64,000 nucleotides of DNA, from positions 832,001-896,000 of the forward strand of contig CBDAOB010000003.1 in assembly GCA_965197905.1 (NCBI GenBank). Direction: 5' to 3'. The DNA comes from Candidatus Latescibacterota bacterium (GTDB lineage: Bacteria; Latescibacterota; UBA2968; UBA8231). This document shows positions 21,001 to 27,000 of the stretch, piece by piece; within the stretch, counting starts at the first letter, position 1, and each line of letters begins with the position of its first letter. The position numbers were made by a program.

Positions 21001-24000
21001 CAACGGCAACGACGGCTCCGGACAGGGGAGCGCCATCGTCCGTGCTCGAAACCCTTCCTCTAACGCTCCGCAGCTCACTCGCCTGCGGCCAGCTGCTCCA
21101 GAAGAGCAGCAGGAAGAGCGTTGCGACAGACATCGGTGCCGGCCGCATTCTCTTCTTGCAACGTGGCAAAGTCAATAACGATATCAACTTCCTCCGTAAT
21201 CTCGCCCCGTTCCACCTCGACCGCGGTTGGCAAAGTGGCCCCGGTTAGGTGATAACATCCAAGCAGCGAGTTGAAGTTCCAAAAGCTGTCTTCTTCCCTC
21301 CATGCCACAACGATCCATCGGTAGACGCCGGCGCGCTGCACCGGAACCAGATAGTCGTACGCGGAAACGCCAAGGGGCGTATCCGTATCGCTGCCTGCCA
21401 GAGTGAAAAAGTCGTCGACGGTTGAGGGGGCATCCTGATACACGGCAACGGCGACCTGGGCAATGTTCGACGGCCAATCGCCACGGAAGCTCAACCGTCC
21501 CGATATCCCGGCTGGTCCTTCCGGTGCGGACGGCAGACCGTGATCGCAGGAGGACCAGACGACAGAACAAACGCAACCGAGGACGGCGAAAACGCGAGTG
21601 ACCCTGGAGAAAATCACGGTGCCCTGCAGCGTTATTCCGTTTCCTCCTCGCCGGCTACGGCAACGAGATCTGCAACGTCGAATCTCACGCCGTTGTAGAT
21701 GACTTTACCGCCCAGCTGGGGATTTTCCGTGTCGCTCAGATCGAGCGTCATATCCACTTCAACCAAAGCTTCCTGGGAGCCCGAGATCTGCAATTCGCCG
21801 ACTATCGTAAACGGAACGACAAGCACGCCGATGGCCAGCTCACCGTTCACCACCATAGCTCCGTCGGGAGAGTACTCCTCGAAGGACCACATGGTAAGCG
21901 TGATCACCACTTGCCCCGACTCACCCTCGATTACCTGGCCCTCGCTGGATGAAAACAGTTGCTGAGCGTCGATTCCCTCCGCAGCAGAACCCATGGCGGA
22001 TACGACACTCAGGACATCGGTGCTGGTCTGAGGATCGGCGGGATTCGATTTCCCGTTCCCGCCGTCGTCTCCGCAGCCGATCAGGAACGCGGTAATCGCC
22101 ATTAGACTGGCTCTGTTGTAGAACATCGGTTGCTCCTATGGATTGACTGTAAGGTTCCGGCGCGCCATCCAAAGATTCAATGGAATGAATGGAGCGTATC
22201 CGATCGTCGCAAGTTTCTAGGCTCCGGCTTCGCCGAGAATCGCGTGCGCTGCATTGTGGCCCGGCGCCCCCGACACCTCCCCGCCCGGGTGTGTGCCGGC
22301 GCCGCAGAGCCAGAGCCCGTCGATAGGCGTTTTGTATTCGGCCCATCCAGGCAGGGGCCGGCGGGAGAACATCTGTCCCGGTGTTGCATCGAGATGATGG
22401 ATGTTGCCATCGGTCAGATAGACCCTTCGTTCGAGATCCAGCGGTGTGAACAGCTTCCACTCTCGAATAGCAGCGCGGAAATTAGGCGCATACGCCACGA
22501 CCGAATCGATCAGCGCTTCCCCCACCTCCTGCCGCCGTTCGTCCCAGGTACCCGAAGCGAGATGGACCGGAGCGTATTCGCTGAAGATTGACAGTACGTG
22601 TTTTCCCTTCGGGCAGATAGTGTCGTCGTAGATAGAGGGAATCTGGATCGACATGACGGGATCGCGTGACGGCAGACCGGCGCGGGCGTCGTTCCAGGCG
22701 CGCTCCACGTAGTCGACCGACGGCGAGATCCAGACGCGAGCGGTGATGTGCGGATCATAGTTCTCGCCGAGATAGGCAGAGAAGTCCGGAAGTGTGTCCA
22801 AGGAGGCATGGAACTTCAGATAGGCGATCTCCGTTTTGAGTCGTGCGACCTGGGAGCGAAAGTCGTCCGTAAGGTGTTGAGACTCCACCAGCTTTAAGAA
22901 GGTGCGCTTCGGATCGGCATTGCTCACCACCATATCGCTTCTGATCTCTTCACCGGAGGTCAGCTCCAACCCCTTAGCCTTACCCTGTTCGACGATCACG
23001 CGCCGCACTTCGCAACCCGTGCGAATGTCTGCGCCGCGGCTCTTGGCGTATTCCGCCATCGCTGCGGTGATCGACCCCATGCCCCCTTTGACAATGCCCA
23101 CAACGCGGACTTCGGTGTCTATATCACCGGGCAGGAAAGGGGAGGGATAGGCGCTGCCAACGGCGCGCGGGTTACCGTGATCACCCGAATGGATGACGGC
23201 GCCCTTCACATGTTCCGACTCGAAGAATTCGTCGACGATATCGGCATGGCAGGTGGTTAGCAGCCTCTCGAAGATCTGCTCGTCACCGGTCTTCCGCGCT
23301 TGCTGTAGAAGGTCGGCGATGGTTGGGGGGGCGGTCAAACCGTACGGACGGGTAATTTCGTGGGCCCTTTCCCAAAAGTCGTTCCAGCGCGGATAGCTTT
23401 CCGCGTCCTTTTCAGAGAAGGATCGAATCGCCTCCGCGTTGCGCTCCACGTCACGCCAGAGGATGAGGTGGCGGCCGTCGGGAAAGGGCCGGAACTCATG
23501 GGGTTGAACGTCGAAGAGCTCGAAACCGTACTTCTGCAGCTCCAGGTCGCGAACGATCTTCGGGTGCAGCGCATAGAGCATGAAGGAACAGCTGGAGAAG
23601 TAGAACTCAGGAAAGAGCTCTTCGGTAACGCAGGCGCCGCCAATGATGTCGCGGCGTTCTAAAACTAGCACTTCGCGGCCGGCATCGGCGAGGTAACCGG
23701 CAGCCACCAACCCGTTGTGTCCGCTTCCAATGATGATCACGTCAGGCATGAGAATCTCCAGGCGTTGAGTATATGCAGCATTTCCGGTGATGCAATTTGC
23801 CAACCTGACTTGACAGCCATACGCGCCTCAGTACCCTCTGCCCCAGCCATCAACTTCGTCGTCAGCGACATGAAAAATGTGAGCCTTTCCACCTTGATAC
23901 TTGCCGGAGTACTGTTTGGTGCCATTTGCGGCATCTTCCTCGGTGAGTACGCATCCGGGCTCTCGGTGGTGGGCGATGCCTTCATCGGTCTTCTGCAGAT

Positions 24001-27000
24001 GACGGTGCTGCCGTACATAATCGTCGCCCTCATCTCCAACATCGGGCGGCTGTCGGTTGCCGAGGGACGGCGTTTCGGGTTCTACGCCGGCGCCTTCCTC
24101 CTGGTTTCTGTGGGATTGACGCTGGGTGCCATCGTCCTTTTGCCCCTGTCGCTGCCAGCGCGCGAATCCGCCTCATTCTTCAGCACCGGTTCGTTGCAAG
24201 ATCCGACCGAGGTGGATTTCCTCGGTCTCTTCATCCCGTCGAATCCGTTCCACTCACTGGCAAACAACGTAGTCCCGGCCGTCGTTCTCTTCTGTATCGC
24301 CGTCGGTCTGGCGGTCATGACCTTGAAGCAAAAGCAACTCGTTCTCGATCCGCTGGATTTCCTGACCGACGCGCTGGGCCGCATCAACCGGTCGCTGGTC
24401 AAGCTGACGCCGCTGGGCGTCTTCGCCATCGTGGCTAGCACCTCCGGCACGATGCAGATTGACGAGCTGGACCGACTGCATGCGTACCTGATTCTGTTCG
24501 GTGTGGCAACGCTGGTTATCGGATTCGGGGTTCTGCTCCCGCTGCTTTCGGTATTGACGCCGTTCTCTTATGGACAGCTCCTGCGCGTGTCCCGGGCCCC
24601 CGTTCTCACGGCGTTCGCTACCGGCAAGGTATTTATTGTGCTGCCGATGCTGGTGGTGGCCAGCGAGGAGCTCTTTCGGGAGCAGGATGCGAATTCGGAG
24701 CGGTCTGTTTCTTACGCCCGCGCTGTAACGCCGCTGGTTTATCCCTTCCCCCACGCTGGGAAGCTGTTGGCACTGCTGTTCCTCCCTTTCGCTGCCTGGT
24801 TCGTCGATCAACCGATCGCGGTGCACCAGTATCCTTTGCTGCTTGGAACGGGCCTCTTCAGTTTATTCGGAAGCCCACTGGCCGCTATCCCTTTCTTGCT
24901 GGACCAGCTGAGGTTGCCGGCGGATATGTTTCAGCTCTTCGTTGTTTCTGGACTCCTGGCCAGTCGATTAGGAGATCTTCTCGGGACGATTCATCTCCTG
25001 TTCGTGTCGGTTTTGACTACGTGCGCGCTGACAGGGAAGCTGCGGTTACAGCTACGCAAGATGGTGCCTGTCTGCCTCTTCATCGTCCTGTTCGGAGCCG
25101 GCGCCACCGGTGCCACGCGAGCGTTCCTGTCCAGTACGCTGGACGAAACCTACGACAAGGACAGCTTCATCAGCGGTATGCACTCGGCGCTTCATGCTTC
25201 GGTGCCGGCACGTGTCCACACGTCCGTTCCCTCATTTGGCGAATTGGCCAGGCAAACTACCCTCAGCCGGATCGAACAAACCGGACGGTTGCGTGTGGGG
25301 TATCATCCAAACAATCTGCCGTGGAGCTTCTTTAATGCCTCGGGGGAGTTGGTGGGGTACGATGTGGATATGGCACATCTACTAGCACTCCACCTGCGAT
25401 GCGAGTTGGAGTTCGTGCCCTTCGAGTTTCGGGATATCTCCGAGCAGCTGGAGCGAGACGATTTCGATCTGGCCATGTCAGGGGTAACCATGTTGTCGGC
25501 GCGGATCGCCAAGCTTCTTTTCACGGAGCCGTACATCGACATTACGGCGGCCTTGCTCGTTCCCGATCATCGCCGCGAAGAGTTCGACCAACGCATGGTA
25601 GACAGAGACTTCGACGATGTGCGCATCGCGGTGGGGAGAACAAGCGATGCCGCACCCATCGCCCGGGCGCTGATGCCCGGCGCCGAAACGGTGACCCTGC
25701 CGTCGCTAAGGGAATACCTCGATTCGGGCGGACGCCAGGCTGATGCGATGATATGGACCGCAGAGAGCGGTGGGGCGTGGACGCTGGTGCACCCGGAATT
25801 CAGCGTTGTGGTCATTCGGCCGGTGTTCATTGCGCCGGTCGGCTACGCAACCGCGCGTCACAACGAAGAATTCGCCAATTTCGTCTCGAGCTGGATCCAG
25901 TTCGCGAAGGCGGGCGGATACGGTGACCGGCTCTACGAGCACTGGATTCTGGGTCAGGACGCGCAAGGGCAGACGCAGCGCTGGAGTGTCATCCGAGACG
26001 TTTTGCACTGGGTCGACTAGGTCGGCAACCTCGGTCGCAGTCAGGCGCTCAGCTCTCGATACTGATCCGGACTTTGTGTTCCGGACGCTCGTACAGGTGC
26101 CCGCCGGCGCCGGGCAGCGCTATGCCAACCCTTATCGAAGGTCCATCACCTCTGGGAAAGATGTGGTGGAAGGTCAGAGCGGGGACATAGACGAAATCCC
26201 CCGCCTTGGCGTGAACCGGCCGGTCTTCGCGACCCTCGATGACCCAATCGATTTCCCCCTCCAAAACAACCCACCATTCGTCATGGTTGTGGCAATGGCG
26301 GTCGTTCTCGTGCCCGCTCTCCTGGTAGATGACAGCCCCGAAGATATGATCCGCCAATACCACGGGGTGAGACCAGGGTGGGGGACCTAATTCCCGCTTT
26401 ATCTCTTCAAGGCTAATGCTGTTCAGCGCGCTGCTCAGTATCGGATTCTCAAGTGCCATGGGTATCCCTCATTAGTTGACCGCCGGCATTTTCACGCCGA
26501 GCTCGTTTCCTAACTCTACCAGCTGTTGCCAGGTCGGCCCAGCTACGTCGATGCCTTCCGCGAGATGCTTTTTCCGGTTCTCCTCCTCTATTTCCCCCGG
26601 GGCATAGATCCTCTCGACCCCTGGGAGGGGGCGCGCCGACCTTACCCAATCTGCCAGCTTTTCAACCTCCTGACAATAACTTTCCATATCGGTGAATTGG
26701 GCAATGTCCAGCGCCATGATCGCGATGCCGCCGCCCCCACCGGCGCCGTCTGTGCAGCCGGCACCCGTCAGGGGTCCAACGATCATCTCGATCATCATTG
26801 CCAGGCCGTAACCCTTGTGCCCAAACTGTAATCCACCGAGGGGCAGTATGGCGTTGTCGTTCGCATTTTCATACTTCGCGGCATCGTTAACGTACTCTCC
26901 GTTCCGGTCGATTACCCAACCATCGGGAAGGGGCTCATCGTGAACGAGCTTCTCCGCGATCTTGCCACCGGCTACCGTGCTCATGGTCATGTCCAGTAGA

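Follow-up and report, generated by a model that had tools for sequence, protein, structure and literature searches.

The window analysed, a 64,000-nucleotide stretch of a Candidatus Latescibacterota contig, carries on its forward strand the gene g01360 (23870..26020), which encodes a secondary-carrier domain and a solute-binding domain on one chain. Translation of the window places the ATG at 23870 and the stop codon at 26018-26020, giving 716 codons plus stop. A longer GTG start at 23717 was rejected, as it would overlap the divergent neighbouring gene on the minus strand (22217..23803) and homologues start at the ATG position. The domain junction is spanned gap-free by contigs from two runs belonging to different studies (X3 record 6, 23700-25905; X1 record 5, 24523-26100). 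One short X3 contig lacks a single base at 25906. Pfam returned SDF over residues 6-357 (E 1.2e-41, 143.4 bits, cut-off 27.9; model positions 1-358 of 387) and SBP_bac_3 over residues 474-693 (E 3.8e-22, 78.9 bits, cut-off 26.4), values essentially those of the first-pass annotation, which had placed both domains on this one gene. The earlier structural model had been made on a 96%-identical representative; an AlphaFold model built on g01360 itself from a 111-row alignment (pLDDT 84.6, pTM 0.73) likewise gives the carrier, its TM8 helix at residues 352-388 and a separate helix at 395-427.

Residues 1-389 (23870..25036, forward strand, as for all features below) form the complete GltPh/EAAT-type carrier that had been proposed, with an SDF/SLC1 fold supported by several comparisons. 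hhalign against 14 canonical SDF carriers gave a probability of 99.96 over 391 columns, and VIA-align matched model residues 1 to 387-389 to GltPh chain residues 5 to 416 with Z-scores of 32-33 and reached Z 39.9 (375 aligned) against 9bgy. Foldseek matches included 9bgz (TMt 0.86 over 390 columns) and 6r7r_B (0.73). Among elevator-type carriers, the SDF fold is the archetype.

The NMDGT motif, a check left open in the first-pass annotation, was searched for with hhalign and in an alignment of 111 sequences, and it occurs in none of them. The Na+-site and H+ signatures of characterised SDF carriers are likewise kept in none of the 111, and neither are the residues with which those carriers coordinate substrate. 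A carrier devoid of the canonical sodium, proton and substrate residues is a new point beyond the earlier description. In TM7, NMDGT is replaced by P294-H-A-G297-K298 (24749..24763), with P and G in 111/111 and K in 96 or R in 14; D or E stands at the D312 position in none, and the canonical form GATVNMDGTALYE is present in the host genome's own SDF gene. The same gene carries the canonical HP1 form AFSTSSSSATLP, whereas at the HP1 tip of g01360 (hairpin 234-272, 24569..24685, located by hhalign mapping; model helices 234-251 and 254-272) the canonical SSS has become G252-K253-V254-F255, with G in 104/111 and K (78) or N (23) at position 253. HP2 (318-346, 24821..24907; model helices 318-331 and 336-346) is about six residues shorter at its tip, as hhalign leaves a six-column gap against the canonical SIGAAGIPxAG. 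In TM8 (24923..25033), hhalign shows D394, R397, T398, N401 and D405 all replaced: the R397 position holds G, S or A and the D405 position L or I, while R366 is kept in 104/111.

In exchange, the carrier has a strictly conserved set of its own (P294, G297, K/R298, R366, F304, F307 and W310), and P294, G297, F304, F307, W310 and F333 are invariant in the transport-domain core across the 111 sequences. A further family-specific motif, SASFFS (residues 100-105, 24167..24184), has no counterpart in the canonical SDF consensus by hhalign; F103 and S105 are invariant and F104 reaches at least 90%. By analogy with GltPh topology we take it to lie in the periplasmic TM3-TM4 loop, where it might offer a docking surface; pLDDT is low in this region (54-60). 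Since the canonical ion and substrate residues are absent, neither a glutamate or aspartate cargo nor sodium coupling can be assumed, and the motif pattern predicts a coupling mode that does not use the known Na+ sites.

TM8 is followed by a short cytoplasmic loop (389-394, the KLRLQLRK region, 25034..25051) that is K/R-rich across the family: positions 383-398 average 3.07 K+R against 0.19 D+E in the 111 sequences, and the binding domain is therefore placed outside. The helix at 395-427 (25052..25150), coinciding with a family-average hydrophobic segment at 395-422, falls outside every VIA-align superposition on SDF carriers; because the whole GltPh fold is contained in residues 1-389, it is a true ninth membrane helix (TM9), in agreement with the earlier proposal of one additional helix bringing the chain back out. 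A periplasmic linker follows (428-462, 25151..25255; pLDDT 67-78), in which M437 is conserved in at least 90%.

Mean pairwise identity across the 111 sequences is 0.52 for the TM7-HP2-TM8 core (residues 285-390), 0.44 for the binding domain, 0.28 for the linker and 0.235 for TM9, which is thus weakly constrained in sequence. This ranking bears on whether the protein still transports. The complete loss of characterised ion- and substrate-site residues and the absence of a metabolic operon context would also fit a carrier that no longer transports and now serves as a membrane-bound receptor ('transceptor') or as an anchor or scaffold that presents its ligand-binding domain at the cell surface. 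We consider this unlikely, since a part serving only as an anchor would be expected to diverge as TM9 has, whereas the core is among the most conserved parts, and since the chain has no cytoplasmic output domain, its inside portion comprising, by translation and model, only a short N-terminus and the six-residue loop. Because the core is more conserved than the binding domain, TM9 and the linker, the carrier appears to be under selection as more than a mere anchor. With the canonical substrate and ion residues all missing, however, it is only the conserved fold and the new motif set that point to transport activity.

The C-terminal part comprises a family-3 solute-binding domain (463-695, 25256..25954), and Pfam, phmmer, Foldseek and conserved residues agree with the complete amino-acid-type binding-protein fold described before. 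The conserved positions are S537, G538, R545, D566 (111/111), E632 (109/111), W637 and T638; R545, the carboxylate-binding Arg, is kept in just 83/111. Where HisJ-type proteins have the Asp that binds the alpha-amino group, this family has S or T. The lobe-2 loop at 589-594, whose counterpart contacts ligand in AncCDT-1-type proteins, is variable in the family. Downstream lies a C-terminal tail (696-716, 25955..26017; P-R-W-S-[VI]-[IL]-R-[DN]-V-L-x-W-V) that is the most conserved segment of the protein (mean pairwise identity 0.55), with R704, W705 and W714 in 111/111.

The nearest solved sequences belong to the cyclohexadienyl dehydratase (CDT) lineage: phmmer matched residues 463-693 to AncCDT-1 (5t0w) at 9.2e-30 and 30% identity, followed by AncCDT-3 (2.3e-27), AncCDT-5 (1.2e-22) and PaCDT (8.5e-17), and Foldseek matched 5t0w_A (TMt 0.89 over 232 columns) and 9e2b (0.80-0.82). 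These matches, and the position of E632 one residue before that of the CDT general acid Glu173, raise the idea of a binding-protein-fold enzyme that converts a periplasmic compound whose product the carrier imports. We regard this as very improbable. Reconstructed ancestors resemble a consensus and would be apt to give high scores whichever member of the family is compared, and the best match, AncCDT-1, is itself described as a non-catalytic amino-acid binder in the work that gives Glu173, N152 and K100 as CDT residues (10.1101/157495). This catalytic network is not retained in the family, with E at 173 in 5/111, N at 152 in 12/111 and K at 100 in 0/111, and a CDT identity was accordingly rejected.

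The carrier and binding parts of this family are found only fused. Both PF00375 and PF00497 are present in 119 of the best 120 homologues, at 39-97% identity, and the one homologue without the pair (P0037) carries a frame shift. A profile of the carrier part, searched exhaustively, gave 126 complete fusions among the best 150 representatives, the other 24 being cut copies or copies running into unaligned tails; no carrier ended cleanly after TM8 in this set. Conversely, all 79 short binding-part matches (149-476 aa) correspond to C-terminal parts of the fusion, 33 of them beginning in the carrier and 10 in TM9, and 14 of 15 N-termini inspected among them lack a signal peptide. Pairwise identities of the two halves correlate (r = 0.77; the highest value in 500 shuffles was 0.07), indicating that they share one history. 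A relative is encoded in 532 of 605 candidate stretches of species-representative genomes. The hosts, mostly diderm and including some cultured strains, comprise Desulfobacterota, Planctomycetota, Bacteroidota, Gammaproteobacteria, Cyanobacteria, Acidobacteriota, Verrucomicrobiota and others, extending the first-pass observation of several phyla. Distribution is patchy within the phylum, the gene occurring in 3 of 168 sampled genomes. Several public-assembly copies (G002, P0037, L025) contain frame shifts or stops, which may reflect errors of sequencing or indicate that the gene is dispensable. No conserved neighbouring gene or functional theme was found around related loci, so genomic context gives no substrate clue; ABC membrane components account for just 2 of 139 immediate neighbours there, and no ABC permease or ATPase was found on the g01360 chain or in the surrounding ORFs of the window that were scanned.

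The binding domain might instead act as a regulatory sensor, a possibility already raised in the first-pass annotation. By binding a signal or the substrate itself it would allosterically open, close or tune the carrier, whose substrate would then come straight from the periplasm. Other proteins do use family-3 folds for sensing, weak partial NCBIfam matches were to MltF and the kinase StpK7, both containing such domains, and a variable ligand-contact loop beside conserved hinge segments and tail fits a constant interface with a variable signal. To our knowledge, however, all transporter-fused binding domains (ABC importers such as GlnPQ and OpuA, TRAP, TAXI-GltS) deliver substrate; no unfused carrier of the clade was seen among the best 150 representatives or in the phylum sample of 168 genomes; and the shortened HP2, the extracellular gate, together with the remodelled substrate site, suggests that the outer face is co-adapted to the domain. 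We therefore hold a sensor role to be possible but doubtful.

We favour, at a probability of roughly 0.55, a tethered-binding-protein elevator importer of SDF/SLC1 fold, equipped with a substrate-binding protein of its own. In the model, the chain leaves TM8 at its cytoplasmic end, TM9 returns it across the membrane, and the linker of about 35 residues tethers the two-lobed domain on the outer face. The domain would capture a small solute and dock over the shortened HP2 gate, either in the same protomer or in an adjacent one; it would then pass the solute to the transport domain, whose elevator motion, typical of the fold, would carry it to the inside. Weighing against this reading are the missing canonical residues, the variable lobe-2 loop, the S or T at the HisJ Asp position and the incompletely kept Arg of the binding domain, the uninformative gene context, the patchy distribution with its broken copies, and the mostly diderm hosts, to which the TAXI-GltS rationale does not extend. 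As the canonical residues are absent and the family has its own conserved set, the substrate is probably other than glutamate or aspartate. The core conserves two basic residues and no acidic residue; together with the carboxylate-type Arg of the binding domain, this weakly suggests, speculatively, an anionic or carboxylate-bearing solute. A full-text literature search found no paper describing an SDF-SBP_bac_3 fusion; the design is widespread yet apparently unstudied and is a candidate for a further class of binding-protein-assisted secondary transporters.

We know of no characterised SDF/DAACS/SLC1 member that uses a binding protein. Relative to GltPh, GltTk, EAAT, ASCT2 and DctA, g01360 shares the fold over residues 1-389 (Z 32-40), passes Pfam SDF and is homologous by sequence from TM1 through HP1 (residues 9-268), but lacks NMDGT, the serines of HP1 and the D/R/T/N/D set of TM8, has a shorter HP2 tip and adds TM9 and an external binding domain. 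ABC importers of the GlnPQ type also have covalently fused family-3 binding domains tethered to a translocator; they are ATP-driven, whereas the g01360 chain has no ABC permease or ATPase. AncCDT-1/Ws0279-type cationic amino-acid binding proteins and CDT are the closest solved relatives of residues 463-693, and the Ser-Gly...Arg carboxylate motif is retained in g01360 (S537, G538, R545); the g01360 domain differs in having no signal peptide of its own, in its TM9 anchor and in its extra conserved 21-residue tail, and from CDT also in lacking the catalytic residues. By structure and by sequence alike, the carrier matches Anc-Int best (9bgy/9bgz/9bh0; Z 39.4-39.9, profile E 4.5e-35), although this score may reflect only a consensus-like reconstructed sequence. 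Anc-Int is described as an ancestral uncoupled aspartate transporter working independently of Na+ or H+ (NSMB 2025, PMC12668577); it is reported there to keep the full Na+-site residue set and bind aspartate, whereas the g01360 family has lost the Na+-site residues altogether.

TRAP (DctPQM, SiaPQM) and TTT systems are likewise described as secondary elevator-type carriers fed by a periplasmic binding protein (PMC12344293), but their carrier and binding-protein families are unrelated, the binding protein is usually a separate secreted protein, and Pfam found no DctM, DctQ or TctA match on g01360. The TAXI-GltS paper states that, until that system was described, TRAP and TT transporters were the sole ones known to work with a soluble binding protein, in line with the short list of such systems given in the first-pass annotation, and proposes that elevator-type carriers are those able to do so (Commun Biol 2025, PMC12344293). 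As described there, TAXI-GltS (Bordetella pertussis; Lachnospiraceae fusions) resembles g01360 in that a binding protein is either fused to or co-encoded with a presumed elevator-type carrier that is neither TRAP nor TTT, and in that natural fusions are the main argument for coupling. It pairs a GltS carrier with a TAXI protein, N-terminal in the fusions, whereas g01360 pairs an SDF/SLC1 fold with SBP_bac_3, fused C-terminally through an added membrane helix. The rationale offered for TAXI-GltS fusions, the absence of a periplasm, is inapplicable to the mostly diderm hosts of g01360 relatives, and whereas those fusions are reported as just 14 among about 10,000 GltS entries (PMC12344293), in the g01360 family fusion is the rule and widespread in diderm phyla.

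The fusion gene g01360 (window 23870..26020, forward strand) has an open reading frame that runs from an ATG at 23870 to a stop at 26018-26020 and encodes 716 residues. An alternative GTG start at 23717 would extend the frame into the divergent neighbour at 22217..23803, a CrtO-like FAD oxidoreductase, and in the alignment the N-termini of homologues match the position of the ATG at 23870. Pfam places SDF (PF00375) at residues 6–357 (1.2e-41, 143.4 bits, cut-off 27.9, model positions 1–358 of 387) and SBP_bac_3 (PF00497) at residues 474–693 (3.8e-22, 78.9 bits, cut-off 26.4). 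Both profiles thus score above their cut-offs on one chain, as the first-pass annotation had described. The junction between the two domains is spanned without gaps, in a single piece, by contigs of two sequencing runs from different studies, which excludes misassembly of the window as the source of the fusion; one short contig of run X3 lacks a single base at 25906. Names given by database pipelines to homologues of g01360 are generic, though both domains are recognized.

We folded g01360 itself with 110 full-length homologues taken from 120 listed, the ten excluded being mostly truncated or carrying long extensions. The resulting model (pLDDT 84.6, pTM 0.73) reproduces the architecture previously seen on the model of a 96%-identical representative. 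Eight membrane helices and the re-entrant hairpins HP1 and HP2 of the SDF fold are present in this prediction, and structural comparison (Foldseek, VIA-align) superposed residues 1–389 on the entire GltPh (chain residues 5–416, Z 32–33) and on ASCT2, EAAT1 and EAAT3 (Z 34–38). The best structural match of the carrier is a reconstructed uncoupled aspartate transporter (9bgy, 9bgz and 9bh0; Z 39.4–39.9, with 9bgy reaching 39.9 over 375 residues), and the top-ranked matches represent outward-facing or intermediate outward-facing states. Profile and fold both assign g01360 to the SDF superfamily.

In the predicted model, TM8 corresponds to helix 352–388 and is followed by a helix at 395–427. Because this helix lies past every SDF structural alignment, it is best regarded as a real ninth membrane helix (TM9), consistent with the extra transmembrane segment proposed earlier between carrier and solute-binding protein (SBP). 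Across 111 sequences the TM8–TM9 loop carries a mean of 3.07 K+R versus 0.19 D+E, and the N-terminus is likewise basic; under the positive-inside rule both lie in the cytoplasm, as in GltPh, so that TM9 takes the chain outward. A linker of low constraint (residues 428–462) joins TM9 to the binding domain.

An exhaustive profile search of 1.84 billion representatives with the carrier part yielded 942 matches at E <= 1e-30, the best 150 of which all had E <= 2.6e-133. On the full-length family profile, 126 of these best 150 were complete fusions and 24 were broken or cut copies. Among the incomplete copies, 19 had 20–224 unaligned residues past the end of the match, with printed ends mostly rich in R, P, S and A, as a frame shift would give, and five were simply cut. 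None of the short forms examined singly lacked TM9. The proteins P0037, P0225 and P0158 clearly enter frame-shifted sequence, P0145 apparently does so, P0161, P0220 and P0223 stop within or just after TM9, and P0123 breaks off soon after its binding domain begins. At a Gemmatimonadota locus (L025:5968-8148), an in-frame stop falls in the middle of TM9 (7234-7236) and the same frame runs on into the binding domain; neither signal peptide nor anchor is present on the piece downstream of the stop. The search with the binding part found only 79 proteins of 149–476 aa, and every one of them maps as a C-terminal part of the fusion: 33 have their start in the carrier, 10 have it within TM9, and for the other 36 it lies in the linker or binding domain. 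A signal peptide was not seen in 14 of 15 printed N-termini of these short proteins; the remaining one, P0414, is ambiguous, with a hydrophobic lead of 33 residues. Pairwise identities of the two halves rise and fall together (r = 0.77, or 0.29 when only distant pairs are compared), whereas 500 shuffles never exceeded 0.07; a single unit with a shared history should show this pattern. Judged from these sequence searches, neither the carrier nor the binding domain occurs apart from the other, and the fusion is obligate.

Among species-representative genomes, a relative is encoded in 532 of 605 candidate stretches. The 80 loci kept derive from Desulfobacterota, Nitrospinota, Nitrospirota, Cyanobacteria, Acidobacteriota, Verrucomicrobiota, Planctomycetota, Bacteroidota, Gammaproteobacteria, Gemmatimonadota, Spirochaetes, Krumholzibacteria and others, in keeping with the earlier observation that the architecture is maintained across several phyla. 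Cultured hosts include strains of Shewanella (among them Shewanella electrodiphila DSM 24955, locus L048), Marinobacter nauticus (L058), Flammeovirga, Lutimonas, Stieleria, Bremerella and Cerasicoccus. Within its own phylum the fusion type is rare, occurring in 3 of 168 genomes (454–581 bits); no unfused or intermediate form was seen in these 168, the remaining matches being canonical SDF proteins at <=115 bits. Only one of 20 close relatives, from the same genus, has the fusion gene, split by a frame change; in this genome (G002) the orthologue at G002:C1:6191935-6193226 (L099, L102) is divided between two frames near residue 90. The 96–97% identical P0037 is frame-shifted just past TM8, and both disruptions are probably assembly indel errors.

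Clustering of 753 ORFs from the 80 loci recovered, besides the gene itself, no family in more than six loci, and Pfam annotation of 139 immediate neighbours revealed no common theme, with synteny confined to individual lineages. Directly downstream of g01360 on the opposite strand (26049..27515) lie a cupin and an Ldh_2-family dehydrogenase, a family of malate/L-lactate/sulfolactate/ureidoglycolate type; this pair is not conserved beside homologues elsewhere. A PhoD-like phosphatase adjoins a TonB-dependent receptor whose N-terminus carries a carboxypeptidase-regulatory-like domain (17823..21187, reverse strand), and at two unrelated loci (L023, L073) the fusion gene has phosphate-selective porin O/P genes beside it; these neighbours are too thin a basis to suggest a substrate. 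The neighbour of the fusion gene in a gammaproteobacterial MAG (L047:3964-5301) is a GltS-type sodium/glutamate symporter, the carrier family of the TAXI-GltS class described in 2025. Further along the window, ORFs of 819 aa (27615..30074, reverse) and 561 aa (29765..31450, forward) overlap by ~310 bases; neither has a Pfam match at E <= 0.01, and the longer has none in NCBIfam at E <= 0.001.

The sole canonical SDF gene of the genome containing the window (L085:1441-2760; contig C5, 1670432-1671619) retains NMDGT and the other motifs intact and bears an in-frame TAG where its G002 orthologue (L087:1441-2760) has Y; the orthologue in turn bears a TAG at a different codon, where the first has E. 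Either these stops arose by independent nonsense mutation or they are assembly errors; should they be real, the fusion protein would be the sole intact SDF-fold gene in the genome.

Sequence searches against solved structures cover only residues 9–268 of the carrier (TM1 to HP1). A profile of 26 carrier parts was aligned with 14 canonical SDF carriers from related genomes using hhalign (probability 99.96, 391 columns), and residues at canonical positions were counted in 111 fusion proteins. The canonical motifs are legible in the genome's own SDF gene as AFSTSSSSATLP, GATVNMDGTALYE, SIGAAGIPMAG and VDRVLDMCRTTVNVWSD. The HP1 serines (canonical SSS) become G-K/N-V in the fusion family, and the NMDGT motif, which the first-pass annotation had left unchecked, is absent and replaced by P-H-A-G-K (P and G each in 111/111, K or R in 110/111), with no acidic residue at the D312 position in any of the 111. 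The tip of HP2 is six residues shorter than in canonical carriers. The TM8 sites D394, R397, T398, N401 and D405 read G/S/A, G/S/A, D/T, G/A/S and L/I, respectively, position 394 being G/S/A in 87/111 and R occurring at position 397 in a single protein. D394, R397, T398 and N401, together with the HP1 SSS, are the substrate-coordinating positions of canonical carriers; these TM8 and HP1 residues are not kept in the family. Two positions ahead of the R397 site, R366 is conserved in 104/111.

The Na+-site signature, given in an excerpt of PMC12668577 as [S/T]92-93, N310, [M/S]311, [D/E]312 and [D/E]405, occurs in 0/111 fusion proteins: P occupies the N310 position throughout and neither D nor E is found at 312 or 405. 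Position 92 is I/L/V in 101/111. The H+-coupling signature from the same excerpt ([A/L/I/V/M/F]92, L311, N405) is equally absent from all 111, with L at 311 in one protein and N at 405 in none. At the level of aligned residues, g01360 fails all signatures of characterised Na+- and H+-coupled amino-acid and dicarboxylate carriers. Mean pairwise identity nevertheless reaches 0.52 in the core (residues 285–390) versus 0.44 in the binding domain and 0.24–0.28 in TM9 and the linker. A transport domain so strongly constrained around a new motif set points to a working carrier, not a decayed anchor, and argues for function with a different substrate and a different coupling mode. That the protein is a non-transporting receptor or anchor appears distinctly improbable, given the conserved core and the absence of any cytoplasmic output.

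Residues 463–695 form, in the predicted model, a two-lobed family-3 binding domain matching AncCDT-1 (5t0w; 9.2e-30, 30% identity, TMt 0.89), a reconstructed relative of cyclohexadienyl dehydratase (CDT), and the tryptophan-binding protein 9e2b (TMt 0.80–0.82). That AncCDT-1 and the ancestral transporter score highest is, we infer, probably due to the consensus-like character of reconstructed sequences and not to specific functional kinship. R545 of g01360 lines up with the carboxylate-binding Arg of AncCDT-1 after an S-G-x-T motif and is kept in 83/111, hence not universally. E632 is near-invariant and lies with D566 at the hinge, and the lobe-2 pocket loop is variable. Following TM9 on the same chain, the domain has no signal peptide or lipobox of its own. 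No ABC permease or ATPase partner was found among the ORFs scanned around g01360 in the window, and ABC membrane components account for 2 of the 139 immediate neighbours at related loci.

The CDT network comprises the general acid Glu173, Asp21-Asn152 and Lys100, as described in part of 10.1101/157495. The positions of Glu173, Asn152, Asp21 and Lys100 are occupied in g01360 by S633, L613, N481 and A560, and across the family by E in 5/111, N in 12/111, D/E in 87/111 and K in 0/111, respectively. As the family does not conserve the positions of Glu173, Asn152 and Lys100, we rejected an SBP-fold enzyme of the CDT form; such an enzyme of any kind is highly improbable. In the C-terminal tail of 21 residues, R704, W705 and W714 are invariant; the interpretation of this tail as an amphipathic helix was rejected, since its hydrophobic moment of 0.36 is reached by 44% of shuffles. 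Complex prediction between carrier (1–432) and binding domain (445–716) scored 0.01 in both runs, made without controls, a result that weighs neither for nor against docking.

In the mechanism we propose, the tethered binding domain would capture the solute and hand it to a remodelled outer gate with a short HP2, after which the transport domain would move it inward by the elevator motion of the SDF fold. That the binding domain serves instead as a regulatory sensor is rather unlikely. For the proposed transporter, two conserved basic and no conserved acidic core residues, together with R545 (83/111) and the hinge residues E632 and D566, hint at an anionic or carboxylate-bearing solute, a hint held loosely because the lobe-2 pocket loop varies. 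Energy could come from proton coupling through new residues, such as H295 (69/111), or there could be no coupling, with direction given by the binding domain. A bolder form, to which we assign a probability of roughly 15%, would make g01360 the first SLC1/GltPh-fold binding-protein-dependent transporter, one in which ion coupling has been dispensed with. K/R298, a fixed basic side chain where the lost NMDGT motif had T314, and R366 would replace the bound cations, and the tethered domain, one per protomer of a trimer, would provide affinity and inward direction, so that an intrinsically uncoupled elevator would be made vectorial by the binding protein alone.

No elevator is better understood than the SDF/SLC1 fold, to which the human glutamate transporters belong. 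If the proposal is true, the family would show an SLC1-fold carrier in which all known sodium, proton and substrate residues are swapped for another conserved set, and homologues in cultured strains make the question directly testable. The authors of the TAXI-GltS study propose that an elevator mechanism is what lets a carrier cooperate with a binding protein, and consider further classes necessary to test this (excerpt of PMC12344293). A widespread, obligately fused SDF–SBP family would, if confirmed, constitute such a test, and on a fold for which much structural and kinetic work already exists.

No description of an SDF–SBP fusion was found in the full-text literature, a scope outside which subscription journals, TCDB and InterPro lie. 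According to the same excerpt of PMC12344293, only TRAP and TT transporters were known to work with an SBP before TAXI-GltS, a statement that agrees with the earlier restriction of SBP-dependent secondary transport to TRAP, TTT and TAXI-GltS. The g01360 family resembles these systems in that SBP and secondary carrier are encoded as a unit, here as a complete fusion in 126 of the best 150 representatives. It differs in that g01360 carries no DctQM, TctAB or GltS carrier and no DctP, TAXI or TctC SBP, the only Pfam domains on the chain being SDF and SBP_bac_3. The earlier reading of a binding-protein-dependent secondary transporter is supported as a candidate, and we propose that g01360 works like TRAP, TTT and TAXI-GltS while sharing neither carrier nor SBP family with them.
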